64,000 bases of DNA, from assembly GCA_051294375.1 (NCBI GenBank), contig CM119271.1:16188770-16252769 (forward strand). Reading direction: 5' to 3'. The DNA is from Paraspadella gotoi (taxonomy: Eukaryota; Animalia; Chaetognatha). Each line of letters begins with the position of its first letter. The stretch's first letter is position 1. The position numbers and the translations under genes were made by a program. This document shows, piece by piece, positions 10,007 to 62,078 of the stretch. The notes under the pieces were generated by a model. The model ran no database searches. It had not been told where the DNA came from and saw nothing but the letters and a program-made list of their open reading frames with translations.

Positions 10007-12986
10007 ATGCGTCGGTTTTTGACGCTGGTAACAAAAACAAAGACAACAACAATGTCTTTTCATAGAAAAAAGTCTTGCGAATGGGATCGACGCCGCGGAG
10101 CATCGGCGACGTCTCAGCCGGCACCCAATCCGGCGTCGTCCGTGTTCCCCTTCAGTCTGGCCACCTATAACTGCCTCTCTCAGGATTGTCTCGATCGTAA
10201 CATCCGCCTTTACGACTCTGTCTCTTCCACTTATCTTCAGTGGGTATGTTTAATCCTTAATCTCATTTACATATTACGGCGATTCGTTATTTGTTATGAA
10301 TTTGTTGTTATTTTGCTGTGGTTTTGCACATAAGTGGCGTCGTCGTTGTTGTCGGCGGCGTTCCAAATTATAGATCGCCTTTTTTATGATTAAATTTGGG
10401 TGTATGAAGCTGAAAATTTATATACAGCTTCTCATCATCAATGTGCTTAAAATTGAGTCTGGACAGTTATTAAATATGTTTTGTTTATGTTTTATCAAAA
10501 CAAACAAATTTTCTCTTTTATTTTTATATTTTTTTCTCTCTCTCTTTTCTCTTTTAATTACATGTCTCTCTCTCTCTCTCTCTTTTCCTAATCACTGATT
10601 CATAAGGGAAAAAAACGAGTCTGCAGCTGGCTCTGCAGGGGCTTTTTCTTTTTCTCTCTTTTTTCCTGCTGCTTTTGCTGCTGCCTCTTGAGTCTGCAGC
10701 TGGCTCTGCAGGTGCTCTCTCTTTTTCTTACTTTTTTCCTGCTGCTTCTGCTGCTGCCTTTTGATTTTTCTTTTTTTTCTCTCTCTATCTCTCTTCGTTG
10801 TTATTAAAAAAAAATTGAATTAGGATTGAACTCGTAAAATTAGGCATCGCATTCGTGTATGTTATCATTTTTTTGACAATGAAATTTTTTTTCCCTTTTT
10901 TTTTCAGAAACTGTAACTTTAATTTTCCTCGGTACTTTATTTTTTTTTTAATTGACAATCCTCAGGGGCTGCGTCTGCTGATCAGTTTATTTGACAATGA
11001 CAATAAAAAACTTTTTCATTGCTTTTTTTTTCAGAAAATCAGTCAATCCAGATTTTTCTTATGCGATTGCGACGATCCTTATGCTTTTAAGATTTTTTTT
11101 TGTTTGTTTCTGAATGTCGTGAATTAGTTAGTTGGTTAAATTAACATAATTGCGATAATCTGTAGTTTTTCATCCAAAGGAAAGTGGACGAGGGTGATGA
11201 TAAAGAGACAGCAATTATCATTACTTAACACTATTAATGACCAATTTATTCCCAGGATTTTCGAAAAGAGCGACTGATGGATGAGTTGTCGTCTCTCGAC
11301 GCCGACGTCGTTTGTCTTCAAGAGATCGACGAGGATCGATTCCACGATTTCTTCTCGCCTTTGATGAAGGAGAAGGTGAATCATTAACTCGGGGTCTCTT
11401 TTCTATTTTGTTAATCAATTTTAATTAAATAAAATTGAAACATCTTCGCAGGGCTACGTAGGACTCTACAAAGGACGCGGCGGTGACAAAATCGACGGCT
11501 GTGCAATTTTCTTCAAAAACTCGAAATTTAATTTGGTGGCGAAGAAGGTTTTTGTTTTGAAGGGGGAAAGTGAAAATAAAATGGGGGTTTGTGGGAAATC
11601 ACATATAGTATCGTAATTGAGTAATGTTGCGAGTTTTTAATTTAATTCGATGATAAAATGAAATAAAATAATTATCTCAGGAAATCGGAATGAATCGCGG
11701 GGTGGGCGTCTTGGATCGAGACAATGTCGCTTTGTTCGCTCTTTTGGAGCCATTGTGGACGACGACGACGACGACGACGACGAACCACAGGTAGACTTTA
11801 AATGATTCTTTTTCTAATAAGTTTCTGAAAAGGATCATTCTTTAAGATTATAATAATACCATGCAGTATTTCGTCTCCGCAACCGCCGATACCTCCTCCG
11901 CCATTGCCTTGCTCTCCGCCGCCTCCAAACCCGCCACTTCCCTCTACGCCTCCGCCTCCCCCTTCGCCTCCCCCACCACCTCGTCGACTTTGCGTCGCCA
12001 CGACCCACATCCTCTTCAACCCTCGACGAGGCGACGTCAAACTGGCGCAACTCTCTCTTCTCTTCGCCGAACTCGATCGATTCTTGCTAGAGACGGATGA
12101 GACGCCCCCGACGGCACGGTCCAAGGCCCGAAAAAATCGTCCCGCCCCCGAGACGCCCGTCATCTTCGCCGGCGACTTCAACTTAGAGCCTTTGTCTCCA
12201 CTCCACGGATTCCTCGTCCACGGGTCCATCTCCTATTTGGGTCGATCAGCCAAGAGGCTGGCGGTGCCGCCGCGGGAGTGTGCCGTCAAGGGCGGGGATA
12301 AGATATTGAAGGAGGACTTGACGAGACCATTGGGAATCGGTGGCGATTGTCGCTTCGAGAAGGAGGAGGAGGAGGCTGCTGAGGAGGCGACTTCCCCAAT
12401 CGGTCGCGCTGCCGACTCCGCCGCCGATTCCCAATCGATCTTTCCGGAAATCTCCGGCAAAGCGGCTCCGATTCTGTCGAACAGCGATTGTGCCTCCTCA
12501 AATATTTCCGGCGATTCTCCCAGCGATTCCCCTATGGAAGTGACGAACGCTGGCCGAGAATCCGGACAAATGGGCACTAAACCGCCGCTATCCGGCCCGA
12601 GTTCGGGTTGGGTCAACGTCTCTGGTCCCGAGCCCGCTAGGCGTAGCTCACCTTCGACCGCCCCCTTAACTCATCCTTTCCAATTTAACTCCGCCTACAA
12701 ACATTTCGTGCCTTCCTTTTCGGTCGACGGATTCTCGAGGAGTATCGCCGCCGAAGTATCTACCTTCAACGACTCTTCAGTCGCCAACGTCGACTACCTC
12801 CTTTTCGATCCCGCTGCCGACGCAAGCCCCGGCATCACCGCCGACGCGGGCTCCCTTCGCTTTTCTCACGCGTCTCGGTTGCCGACGCAACGAGATTTAT
12901 CCGCGATCGGCAAATTGCCCAACGCTTTACGAGGCTCGGATCATTTTCCGCTCTGCGCCTTTTTTTATTTATTGGACAAAGAATGA
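10007..12986 (+). CDS. angel: Angel homolog (CCR4/nocturnin EEP-family phosphatase). Exons ~10007-10243, 11257-11376, 11451-11547, 11681-11790, 11867-12986
   Basis: Motifs FSLATYNCLSQD, DADVVCLQEID, DGCAIFF, LDRDNVAL, VATTHILFNPRRGDVKLAQL, GDFN, VDYL, GSDHFPL. Confidence 0.92.
10321..11100. mobile_element. Dispersed non-autonomous repeat (Helentron/HINE-like), copy 1, in Angel intron 1
   Basis: Colinear similarity to 36500-39750 once the two nested insertions there are removed; shared 3' end cttatgcgattgcgacgatc...tgctttt. Classification is tentative. Confidence 0.7.
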
Positions 12987-20953: not shown

Positions 20954-26714
<5,761 letters not shown>

Positions 26715-35959: not shown

Positions 35960-38900
35960 ATGGAATCCCGAGCGAAGACGACGACGACGACGACGACGAA
36001 AGTCATATCTACATTCCAGGTAAAATGCTTTCTATAAAATCTCTTAATGAAATTAATAAAACCAGTACGAAAATTATAAACAAGCTATCTTGTCGCATGA
36101 CTTTGGACAGGCTATGGTGTGTTAAAGCCTCCTTACCTCTTACAAGATAACATAGCAGGACCCCTTTATGAAGAATCTTTCACGATCTGTTTGTTAGCTT
36201 TACTGATTCTCTGTTTCTTTCCGCAGCTCCACTGATGTATTTCTCATATAATCCCCAGCTCCACTGATGTATTTCCCCTTTATTCCCCAGCTCCACTGAT
36301 GCAGTTCCCCGTTCCCGGCGGGGTCGGGGATTCCCCATCTCGTCGACTCAAGTCCGACGCTTCGCCCGAACTCGATTCCAAGACGAAGAAAGTCGCAGAG
36401 AAATTCGGGGATGCGATGGAGGCCATTTCCAACGAGCCAACCTTGGCCATGTACAGGTGGAGCAAGAGGAGGGTCACTCATTTTTTATCGTCGCAATAGC
36501 AATCGCAATCGCTTTTGCGCATAAGTAGCGTAGTCGTCGTCGTCGGCGTTCTAAATTATAGATTATGGCAACGGAGGATAGCCTGTGATACCCGGGCGCG
36601 GGGTATCTCACCAATGGCGTAGGGCTGCGGACCCTCAGTGACCGCCTCCTGTCACTGGCATGTTTATACCGGCACCGTCACATTTAAGCCAGAACCGGGA
36701 TACCCAGGGATTGAACCCGGACGCATGGATGGAATGAGATGATTTAGCCTGCTCAGCCATTGAGATGAGGCTGAGGACGGACAGCAGTGAGGCAGCTTTA
36801 AGTCTTGCTGCCACAGGATCCCCCACCAGACTTCTCCACAGGGGCCTCAATCCTGAGGAGATGTCTGAGAGAAGGTTTTGATCTCATTGCCATAGTGAGA
36901 GCGAGCGGGCGAGCAGCGAGCGAGTCTGGAGCGTTACCAGAGAAGTAGGGCATAGGCGTGATATGCATACCCTAAGCGATGTAAGCAAGGGCGCACGGTG
37001 CGCAGCGGTTGCGTGTTCGAGAGTAGGGCTCACCACTTATGGCAACGGGAGGATAGCCTGTGATACTCGGGGCGCGGGGTATCTCACCAACTGGTGTAGG
37101 GGCTGCGGACCCTCAGTGACCGCCTCCTGTCACTGGCATGTTTATACTGGCACCGTCACATTTAAGCCAGAACCGGGATACCCAGGGATTGAACCCGGGA
37201 CGCACGGATTGAATGAGATGATTTAGCCTGCTCAGCCATTGAGACGAGGCTGAGGACGGACAGCAGTGAGGCAGCTTTAAGTCTTGCTGCCACAAGATCG
37301 CCTTTTTATGATTAAATTTATGTGTATGAAGCTGAAAATTTATATACAGCTTTTCATCATTGATGTCCTTAAAATTGGGTCAGGACAGTTATTAAATATG
37401 TTTTTGTTTACGTTTTATCAAAACAAACAAATTTCCTCTCTTTTATTTTCATATCTTTTTGTCTCTCTCTTTTCTCCTTTAATTATATGTAGCTCTCTTC
37501 TCTCTCTTTTCCCAGTGCTTATTCATCGGAAAAAAACGAGTCTGCAGCTGGCTCTGCAGGGCTCTTTCTTTTTCTATCTTTTCTCTTGCTGCTTCTGCTG
37601 CTGCCTTTTGAGTCTGCAGCTGGCTCTGCAGAGGCTCTTTCTTTTTCTCTTTTCTCCTGCTGCTTCTGCCTATTGATTTTTTTATTTCTCTCTCTCTCTG
37701 CGTTTTTATTAAAAAAAAGTGAATTAGGTAGGGTATTGCACAAAACTTTAGAAATACTAATTTTCTTCATTTTTTGGTTTTAACCTTATATTAAGCCTAA
37801 CGAAGTGTACTTTAATCGTTAATTCCAAGTTTGACTTTTAAATATTTGATTTACGCCAACTGATTTACGTCAATTTGGAGTAACGTTTCTGCCTCCTAAC
37901 TGCTGTCAAGGATATTCAACAAAATTTTTGAAAACGCTTTTTTCTAATTAAGTATACATTGTTGTATTGGATTCAGATTTGATTTCTTTTTTTTTACGTG
38001 TTTGTTGGCGCTGGTAGCGTAAAAACTACGCCAAAACGTATTATTTCCTAATTACATATGTGGCGTTAATGATTTTTCCAAAAAAAATCTTAAAATATAT
38101 AAGTTAAATAATTGTAAATGTTTATATTTAAATTTTGAAAAGAATTGTGGCGTAAAATGGCGTGAAATGAAGGTAAAACCGTTTAATATGATATCATGAT
38201 GTGGCGTAAAGACTTTCTGATTGTTTTCTAGTAAAAGCTATTCAGTTAAGTGGTTTTAAAGATTTATCTGGCCTCTTTTTATACAGATGTGGCGTAGAAT
38301 GGCGTAAAATGAACAAAAAAGCATATAAATATATTAAATTCCGTGGCGTAAAGACTTTTTGTTTATTTTATAGTAAAAACTACTCGGTTAAGTTGCTTTA
38401 AATATTTTTCCGACCTTTTTTTTAAATTGGTTTGGCATAGAATGGCGAAAAATGAACAGAAAACCATATTAATATCATTTAATTTTGTGGCGTAAAAACT
38501 TTTTTTCATTTTCCAAATAAAACTATTAAGTTAAGATGCTTTGGCGTAGAATGGCGTAAATTGACGTAAACTAAGCCACTTTATCCCCTTATCTCTTTCC
38601 CCTTCCTCCCTTTTCTTTTCTCTTTTATTTTTATACAATCTCCGATTCAAAGTCGATTATTTTTCGGTTTTAATTCTTTAAAATCAAAGAAAAAAACGAA
38701 TACCGAAAATAAATCTCAAAATCATAGATAAAAAGACAAAGATACTAAACATAAAACCCAGTGGACAATTTTAATAAAAATATCAGAAATTGTGGATCAA
38801 TAATGGGTCGTTTGGTTTATGTTTGAAATTTGTTAAAAATAAAGACTATAATAAATGATAATACCCATTATAATAATTACAAGTATCATATATATTAAGC

Positions 38901-40457
38901 AAATGAGGAATGGTTGTAAGCTGAAAAAAGGTATGATAAATCTTAAGATCATAATAAATATATTATATCAGTTTCATACATATTGATGATTCATAGGCCT
39001 TAATATACAGTAGGAAACAATATATAAAATGACTATCGCCCAGAAATGCTACTGGCGCATTTTTGCGCATCATTTTTGGGAATTATCAATGATAAATACC
39101 TGAGAGTAAATACATTTGCATCTCCTATAACCAGAGGTTTTGCGAGAAAGCCTAGTTTTTGCGCTACAACATAAAAAGAAATATTGCTTTCTGTACTATT
39201 CCAATTTTTCTTATTTGAAAGATTCTTTTTTCGGTTTTTAGTTGGAGTTACGCTTACGCTACGTATATTCAAAAAATAAAATTTTTCTTTTCAGTATTTT
39301 CATACAGTAAATATTTCAAAAAGCCTTGTTTTTTGGTATCAAATTCCCTATTATTTTTCGGCCGATAGAGAAATAAAAATTTCGTCGAATACTGCTAATC
39401 CCTAAATTAGGATTGAACTAGTAAAATTAGGCATCGCGTTCGTGCATCTTATCATTTTGCTATCGCAACATCGGGTTTTTATTTCGTCTTTTTTTTTCTC
39501 AGGGGCTTAGTCTGCTGATCAGTTTATTTTTTGACAATAATTTTTTTTTTCTTTTTTTCAGAAACGGTAACTGTAATTTTCCTTGGTACTTTATTATTTT
39601 TTTAAATTGACAATCGTAAAATAGAATTTTTTTTTCTAGTTAATAAAATATATTTTCTTTTCTTAAATTTTATTTTTTTAGTATCAAAATTTGTCGTCAA
39701 TCTAGATTTTTCTTATGCGATTGCGACGATCTTTATGCTTTTAGTATTTTTTAAAATTTATTATTTTTTTTTTATTTGTTTTTTATTCGGAAGTTTCGGT
39801 ATTAATTAGTTTCAATTAGAGGAAAATAAAACAAACATGTTTGGACTTTTTTTACTTAAAGATCTCTCTCTCTCTCTCTCCCCTCCACTATTGCAGAGTC
39901 CAAGAGCACGCCCGCAAGTCCCTCCCGGGTCTCACGTCCCGAGCGATCGAGACACGAAAGCAGCGGACGCGCGTAGAGGGAATGACGTTCGACGTTGACT
40001 CTGCAGCAGCCGCCGCGCGGACGATGCGGCGCAGCGACCTTCATTTCCAGAACATTCAGGATTTGTTGAAAAATAGCATGTTCATGCTGCAGCAAATCGA
40101 GTTCGAGGCTGGGAGGCGGAAAAAGCATGAAAACAATGAAAGGTGGGTTCCAACGGGCCGACCCTGGCCTGGGGTTAGGGGTGAATGAGTTGGTAAATTA
40201 CGCAACCTTTATGACTGAGACTTTATTGTGACCAATCAATCTTTTTCCTTCCCTTCCCTGCACTGCACTGCAGCATGTACTCCCAACCTCAGCTGCGCAT
40301 GTCGCGACCGTATTCCGTTAACGATCTTCCTGTCGGCGTCGGAGGCGGCGGCGTCGTCGCTCGCCAAGACCCGGCGTTGGACGACGCTGCTGCTGTGGAG
40401 GCGGCTGACGCCGCTGCTGTCTCTTCCGCGCCAAGGGATAGGAAGAGCGTCAATTGA
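35960..40457 (+). CDS. BORCS8: BLOC-1 related complex subunit 8 (BORCS8/MEF2BNB). Exons ~35960-36019, 36305-36456, 39897-40142, 40274-40457
   Basis: ELDSKTKKVAEKFGDAMEAISNEPTLAMYRVQEHARKSLP...HFQNIQDLLKNSMF. Confidence 0.88.
36564..37294 (-). mobile_element. TRIM (miniature LTR retrotransposon) with tRNA-like LTRs, Helenus-like
   Basis: Direct repeats 36564-36815 and 37038-37294; 222-bp internal region with PBS-like TGGTGAGCCC and G-rich PPT; 4-bp TSD AGAT; A box TGGCTGAGCAGG and B box GGTTCAATCC in each LTR. Confidence 0.88.
37729..39404. mobile_element. Non-autonomous hAT-like DNA transposon
   Basis: Ends TAGGGtattgca...tgctaatCCCTA, flanking duplication AATTAGG, absent from the paralogous site at ~10818-10830, internal ~120-bp repeats with TGGCGTAAA motifs. 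Confidence 0.75.

Positions 40458-44769: not shown

Positions 44770-54745
<9,976 letters not shown>

Positions 54746-55445: not shown

Positions 55446-62078
<6,633 letters not shown>

Follow-up and report, generated by a model that had tools for sequence, protein, structure and literature searches.

The window, i.e. the whole 64-kb stretch of DNA that was analysed, contains a 731-bp LTR element whose gene neighbours are a collagen repeat, a tetraspanin, bZIP, BORCS8, FAM210, AdoHcyase and TPR (Pfam matched 8 of the 18 frames scanned). These neighbours indicate an animal host, and the FAM210 gene has six homologues at 51–64% identity. No reverse transcriptase motif was found in the 64-kb window. 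The element is read on the minus strand and has the following parts.

37294 to 36564, minus strand: whole element, 731 bp, two LTRs and an internal region
37038..37294, minus strand: 5′ LTR, 257 nt, TG...TA, from the LTR–LTR alignment
37023..37035, minus strand: PBS-like sequence, 11 of 13 letters as in the tRNA-Trp PBS of Kojima Fig. S2
36816..37037, minus strand: internal region, 222 nt, non-coding, adjoining LTR sequence in other copies too
36820..36837, minus strand: purine-rich tract (purine at 14 of 18 positions), ending 4 nt upstream of the 3′ LTR
36564..36815, minus strand: 3′ LTR, 252 nt, with five one-base gaps when aligned to the 5′ LTR, from the same alignment

The original prediction described near-identical LTRs of 257 and 252 bp with TG..TA termini, a PBS-like sequence and no coding capacity, and the anatomy agrees on each point. 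In the alignment of the LTRs 246 positions match, 6 differ and 5 are one-base gaps; both LTRs begin with TGTGGCA and end with TGCCATA. Stop-free frames reach at most 82 aa in the sense and 114 aa in the antisense direction, and the 114-aa frame has no Pfam match. Since the LTRs differ by only about 2.4%, this copy of the element is young. Four of the six LTR–LTR substitutions are CG to CA, a bias that hints at CpG methylation of the element in the host. The PBS-like sequence, TGGTGAGCCCTAC, begins 2 nt past the 5′ LTR and shares 11 of 13 letters with the honeybee tRNA-Trp PBS printed by Kojima. The PPT-like tract does lie upstream of the 3′ LTR, but it ends in five G in the window and not in the six first reported. 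It is a weak PPT, and is separated from the LTR by the 4-nt spacer ATCC; in most of the depth of other copies the terminal G run has one extra base.

The insertion site can be read from the flanks and from a paralogous copy of the surrounding repeat.

37295..37298, no strand: TSD AGAT, upstream copy, from comparison of both flanks
36560..36563, no strand: TSD AGAT, downstream copy, from comparison of both flanks
10372..10375, no strand: empty site with a single AGAT, in the paralogous copy of the host repeat

The proposed 4-bp TSD is thus borne out, with AGAT on both flanks of the element and a single AGAT in the paralogous host repeat near 10372–10375. A 3-bp TSD with an LTR one base longer was also considered; it is refuted by at least 16 public contigs of run X1 that exit the LTR at 37038 into other letters.

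The element is nested in a larger host repeat, of which a paralogue is found near 10320–10820. This host repeat (36487–39730 and 10320–11100 in the window) is AT-rich and present in very high copy, and an inverted 11-nt motif is located near both of its ends (36487 and 39720; 11066 in the paralogue). The host repeat is probably a non-autonomous DNA element. A pair of 257-bp direct repeats, 78% alike and 142 bp apart, lies within it (38146–38542). The window also has a second repeat of about 130 bp in four copies on both strands (36076–36163, 47495–47630, 60625–60748 and 23540–23622), whose summed depth in three DNA runs is very high and which has no B box.

Evidence for a family comes from public contigs aligned to the locus, with LTR-end exits and variants taken from two runs, X1 and X5. 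In X1, at least 38 contigs (22 + 16) leave the LTR into unrelated flanks at one end, and at least 59 (22 + 37) do so at the other. In X5, at least 18 leave at the exact LTR end on one side and at least 42 (17 + 25) on the other. For the contigs exiting at the LTR ends, flank agreement is 0.43–0.47. Junctions between the internal region and the LTR are also found in other contigs, with up to 41 differences. As contigs exit at exact ends and the internal–LTR junctions recur, the element belongs to a dispersed family with an LTR–internal–LTR structure, as had been supposed. Tandem SINEs, the competing description of the repeat, are ruled out by the sharp LTR ends, the unrelated flanks and the LTR–internal junctions elsewhere. 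The TG..TA termini are the family state, because contigs exit precisely where the LTR ends on either side; no variant of the terminal TA of the 5′ LTR was found in other copies among the matches listed.

Four of the six LTR–LTR substitutions (37067, 37095, 37148 and 37210) are private to the 5′ LTR of the window copy, and one (36726) is private to the 3′ LTR. Since no 5′-LTR gap is present among the matches listed, the five LTR gaps appear to be specific to the 3′ LTR in this copy or this assembly. In X1, X3 and X5 the depth summed over the element exceeds that of unique flanks about a thousandfold, a ratio that is not a copy number; along the LTR this depth varies 15-fold in X5. One public contig of the family has the PBS in the form TGGCGAGCCC, which we take to resemble tRNA-Arg ends. 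Some contigs keep the PBS region and diverge at 37007 (at least 6 in X5 and at least 15 in X1), and at least 7 X5 contigs have only the last 9 LTR bases in common with the element, with divergence at 37046. Contigs that share only the LTR end or the PBS region may represent a sister family or the helper element. The flank letters of other insertions (37037–37038 and 37294–37295) lean toward ATAT/GTAT-like 4-mers, a pattern that suggests a palindromic target preference.

Each LTR carries a tRNA-like promoter segment.

37227..37238, minus strand: A box of the 5′ LTR; copy in the 3′ LTR at 36748–36759
37182..37198, minus strand: T-arm-like hairpin with B box at 37185–37195; B box copy in the 3′ LTR at 36707–36717

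The A and B boxes reported earlier are present in both LTRs and have tRNA spacing, their LTR positions being 57 (A box) and 100 or 99 (B box). No other place in the 64-kb window has this pair of boxes, nor does any of 20,000 LTR shuffles. The T-arm-like hairpin is likewise present in the 5′ LTR, with a 5-bp arm and a 7-nt loop. A minor variant at 37184 (at least 13 X1 contigs) converts a T-arm G-U pair to G-C; the change is one-sided and the arm is kept. The segment is not a whole tRNA: ARAGORN finds 0 genes and Rfam gives no tRNA match. Downstream of the predicted Pol III start there is no T run of 3 or more within the element. A T4 run is also missing in 1604 of 2000 shuffles, and the absence is permissive only. 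TATAAA is found at LTR position 149 in both LTRs, where it overlaps the predicted cut site described below; neither AATAAA nor ATTAAA occurs in the element.

The LTRs, A and B boxes, PBS, weak PPT and 4-bp TSD are all those of a Helenus-type TRIM with tRNA boxes, the group to which the element had been compared. That reading of the LTR stands as far as it goes, but it is incomplete in that each LTR also has a twister-type motif behind the tRNA-like part.

37077..37183, minus strand: twister-type motif of the 5′ LTR, type-P5 order, core at 37098–37161
37177–37183 with 37077–37083, minus strand: closing stem of the 5′ LTR motif, 7 bp, in the MFE fold
between 37144 and 37143, minus strand: predicted cut in the 5′ LTR, from the twister-type motif
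36601..36705, minus strand: twister-type motif of the 3′ LTR, core at 36621–36683
between 36666 and 36665, minus strand: predicted cut in the 3′ LTR, from the twister-type motif
36666..37143, minus strand: predicted unit-length RNA between both cut sites, 478 nt, with PBS and PPT

P2, P4, T1, T2 and the conserved core bases are present in P5 order in both LTRs. The type-P5 descriptor consists of a P2 strand, GA, a T1 strand, the P1 region, N^AA, the second P2 strand, GC and the P3 region, followed by P4, the loop U-T1-N-AGC and P4. In the 64-kb window it matches only the two LTRs (37161–37098 and 36683–36621). It is matched by none of 20,000 LTR shuffles, and 30 shuffles of the window give one match. 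It should be pointed out that the descriptor was composed after the sequence had been inspected, and therefore features that lie outside it weigh more. Two such features are present in the MFE fold: P3 forms a hairpin of 7 bp, and a stem of 7 bp encloses the motif where P5 is expected. Judged by sequence, each LTR holds a twister-type motif with the full twister base-pairing pattern.

Covariance models give little signal. Rfam twister-P1 matches the half of the 5′ LTR motif from the cut site to P4 weakly (14.7 bits, E 0.82); twister-P5 matches neither LTR, and the 3′ LTR motif has no twister match in Rfam. On the 1.1 kb around the element Rfam shows two chance-level matches and no hammerhead. 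Both P2 (4 of 4) and T1 (3 of 3) are paired in the two LTRs; among 75 database loci that match the primary-sequence pattern, none has both paired. These loci, in viral (3) and metagenome (72) contigs, yielded no relative of the element from outside this genome: none matches it by BLAST and none has a complete motif. Few variants are seen within the family in X1 and X5 contigs, and no core variant at 1% or more is found among the matches listed for these runs. With eight variable places, none of which falls in the approximately 48 of 257 positions concerned, the chance of such an outcome is near 0.2, and the lack of core variants is therefore uninformative.

The motifs depart from the twister consensus in the core and in P1. 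In both LTRs the loop base is C where most twisters have A (A28 of the rice/Osa ribozyme). In the activity matrix of Kobori and Yokobayashi, A28C has a relative activity of 1.00, and C27G+G47C, which is the same T1 swap as in the element, has 0.86; the column reading of the matrix was checked by A28G, 0.48, against the listed fraction cleaved. A set of 204 viral loci (L076–L279) provides a natural comparison, with complete twister-like motifs of P1 or P5 order in 110 of 206 core matches among the matches listed. Complete motifs are found in 94 of the 125 listed core matches that have A at the A28 equivalent, in 16 of 36 with C and in 0 of 45 with G or T; for the bases other than A the set of loci is complete. 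Since complete viral motifs occur with C and none with G or T, C at this position can be considered a natural variant.

In the second departure, P1 is replaced by a short self-complementary segment.

36667..36674, minus strand: self-complementary segment of 8 nt replacing P1, 3′ LTR; copy in the 5′ LTR at 37145–37152

The element motifs have no P1 hairpin, only these 8 nt, whereas each of 20 natural P5-order motifs has a P1 hairpin of 17–35 nt. The segment forms a duplex at −10.9 kcal/mol, and its own hairpin is at +5.0 kcal/mol. Among random 8-mers, 2% are self-complementary, and the palindromic state represents 99.7–99.8% of depth in two runs. The 5′ LTR palindrome of the window copy deviates at 37148, and its heteroduplex with the 3′ palindrome is at −4.7; the predicted ensemble shows no pairing between the two palindromes. 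P1 has been reported to be dispensable for twister cleavage, and the monomer may therefore still cut. Possibly, as an alternative to cutting by the monomer, the two LTR motifs form a swapped pair.

Several points from the predicted folds count against an active ribozyme. P2 lies outside the MFE fold, in which the T1 strand and the P1 palindrome are paired with a segment upstream of them. Before pseudoknots are counted, the active-type fold costs +5.2 kcal/mol in the 5′ LTR and +11.2 kcal/mol in the 3′ LTR, compared with 1.6–6.7 kcal/mol in 20 natural P5-order motifs. Compared with shuffles, the motif regions show no excess stability (z −0.15 and −1.05), and the predicted 478-nt circle is not unusually stable either (z −1.4). 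The circle is 62% paired, and roughly 70% has been reported for plant retrozymes in the portions of that work covered here. The ends of the predicted unit can form a 5-bp stem with a pairing probability of 0.3–0.4; if formed, this stem would aid ligation and, once the circle is closed, cover the cut site.

An element of this anatomy, inserted with a 4-bp TSD, present at many other sites and carrying A and B boxes and the twister pairing pattern in each LTR, raises the question of how it replicates. With the twister-type motif in each LTR, the likely route shifts from a Cassandra-like to a retrozyme-like one. The reading we favour, with some reservation, is that of an LTR retrozyme, in which both motifs cut and the resulting 478-nt RNA is circularized and copied by a helper, likely of Gypsy type. 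Transcription by Pol III would start about 8–10 nt upstream of the 5′ LTR A box and would meet no run of 3 or more U in the element. Both motifs would then cleave at U^A, leaving a 5′-OH and a cyclic phosphate, and the two 8-nt palindromes possibly would pair with each other in place of P1. The cut RNA would have PBS and PPT but no terminal repeat, and in linear form would therefore be unusable for ordinary strand transfer. Ligation into a circle by the host tRNA ligase, tRNA priming at the PBS and passage of the helper reverse transcriptase round the circle would rebuild two LTRs, and the helper integrase would insert the DNA with a 4-bp duplication. A Gypsy-type helper is proposed because of the 4-bp TSD and because animal Helenus elements have PBS types in common with Gypsy (Kojima).

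A more specific version of this route can be outlined, although it is put forward tentatively and is on balance doubtful. The element would be a ‘natural Tornado’, i.e. a Pol III-driven animal LTR element with twisters that would be active only as a domain-swapped pair formed via the loop-less palindrome. The two-LTR precursor would be cut to unit length, and the circle, with its single, half-active motif, would be immune to renewed cutting and would serve as template for a Gypsy-type reverse transcriptase. The Tornado expression system reportedly combines two twisters of different permutation with RtcB.

A different role for an active twister would be as a maker of 3′ ends that replaces the U-run terminator. 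Only the 3′ LTR would be cut, and the linear RNA, still with some 100 nt of terminal repeat (LTR positions about 50–151), would undergo strand transfer as in Cassandra, which uses a short Pol III-defined repeat. Most Helenus LTRs in the published material covered here have, by eye, a T-run behind the tRNA-like part, and the element has the twister-type motif there instead and no T3 run; moreover, the competing fold could slow cutting. However, both motifs are whole in the predicted transcript and have the same closing stem, so nothing obvious spares the 5′ motif, and plant elements of the same layout give unit RNAs and circles, as described in the portions of those papers covered. This explanation is considered unlikely.

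The twister may also be a passenger. The LTR of a Helenus-type TRIM would have taken up a SINE-like piece with a twister that is inactive or has no role in LTR replication. Kojima proposes insertion of a SINE into an LTR as the way in which Helenus arose (in the part of PMC10886601 covered), and a stunted P1 and a P2 that is disfavoured in the predicted folds would fit this reading. On the other hand, the core pairs and catalytic bases are all intact in both LTRs, no variant at 1% or more is present among the matches listed for two runs, and P1 is reportedly dispensable for cleavage. Retention of the motif also needs a reason, as the linear route would not survive cutting by an active ribozyme in the 5′ LTR. 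A passenger role is quite improbable. A Pol II-driven TRIM, in which TATAAA, present in both LTRs across the predicted cut site, is the TATA box and the tRNA boxes and twister likeness are remnants or chance, is more improbable still, with no AATAAA or ATTAAA in the element and with the A and B boxes and the twister pattern each found in 0 of 20,000 shuffles.

The LTR retrozyme reading can be compared with several known systems. Helenus/TRIMp3 elements (PMC10886601) share with the element two LTRs, PBS, PPT, the lack of an ORF and a size within 311–1263 bp, as well as a TRGCY/YGG-like A box, a GGTTC B box and, in animals, a 4-bp TSD, according to the portions of the paper covered. They differ in the TG..TA ends of the element and in its LTR layout, where the tRNA-like part lies within the first LTR half and has the twister-type motif, not a T-run, behind it. 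In these same portions, Pol III transcription of the published Helenus elements is unproven, no ribozyme is described in them, and animal Helenus share PBS types with Gypsy (Kojima 2024, PMC10886601). The first suggestion was of a probably uncatalogued family, and a motif search of the whole Kojima 2024 consensus file gave no match to it. The search returned 0 matches to the element PBS, the LTR end and four twister loop words, although line breaks can hide words.

The nearest layout is found in Helenus-2_SyJa and Helenus-2_SyUm of Synergus wasps. The entries covered (Data S1, PMC10886601) show an early tRNA-like part, a 277-nt LTR without a T-run, a similar tRNA-Trp PBS and a 4-bp TSD. Behind the tRNA-like part of these LTRs a type III hammerhead can be seen by eye (GUC, CUGAUGA, GAAA), with three stems and complementary loops; it is unremarked in the portions of PMC10886601 covered. 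The Synergus elements thus have an apparent hammerhead where the element has a twister-type motif.

Plant LTR retrozymes (PMC4918200, PMC7761336; portions covered) are likewise non-coding LTR elements with one ribozyme per LTR, PBS and PPT, a 4-bp TSD, a unit RNA without a terminal repeat and an inferred Gypsy-type helper. Unlike the element, they carry type III hammerheads, form circles of 600–1000 nt as established by experiment, and have no Pol III boxes described in these portions; the element is from an animal, has a twister motif and a 478-nt unit, and is known here from its sequence. By sequence, it has the ribozyme motif in each LTR that marks the LTR retrozyme class, but it falls outside the original definition, which is by hammerhead.

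Metazoan non-LTR retrozymes (PMC7229834; portions covered) resemble the element in being animal sequences with a ribozyme-bounded unit RNA, and some need dimeric ribozymes. They differ in having type I hammerheads in tandem repeats, and LTR, PBS and PPT are stated to be absent; RtcB circularizes their RNAs in vitro (PMC7229834). The twister variants found in Schistosoma Perere-3 (Liu et al., 2021, PMC8501958; portions covered) also have a weak or absent P1 and reside in an animal retrotransposon, but they are of type-P1 order, and the non-LTR element has just one, at its 5′ end. In the same paper a figure legend places some twister variants within 10 kb of LTR-type RT domains. The Tornado system, as presented in the portions of its description covered (10.1101/2023.07.11.548538), resembles the element in joining a Pol III promoter and twisters to produce a small circular RNA in animal cells; unlike the element, it is engineered. 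No paper reporting a twister in an LTR element was found in the open-access literature, as far as its texts were covered (subscription journals, Repbase and Dfam being outside this scope), and the portions covered of PMC10085705, PMC9901934, PMC11722881 and PMC6765202 contain no such case.

In the portions of reviews covered, LTR retrozymes are confined to plants and to hammerheads, and animal retrozymes are stated to be without LTR, PBS and PPT. If the motifs cut, LTR-type replication via a ribozyme-made circle would also exist in animals, and such replication could run on a ribozyme class other than the hammerhead. Twister ribozymes would gain a defined biological job, and TRIMs with Pol III boxes, Helenus and Cassandra, would be linked to retrozymes, two lines of work that have so far been apart. 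The 8-nt palindrome makes dimer-dependent twister cleavage testable. If the domain-swapped reading is true, the element would represent a dimer-dependent twister and an animal class of LTR retrozyme, and the hammerhead-bearing Helenus of Synergus would be an independent parallel. The finding also suggests that catalogued TRIM consensus sequences may hold ribozymes that have been missed.
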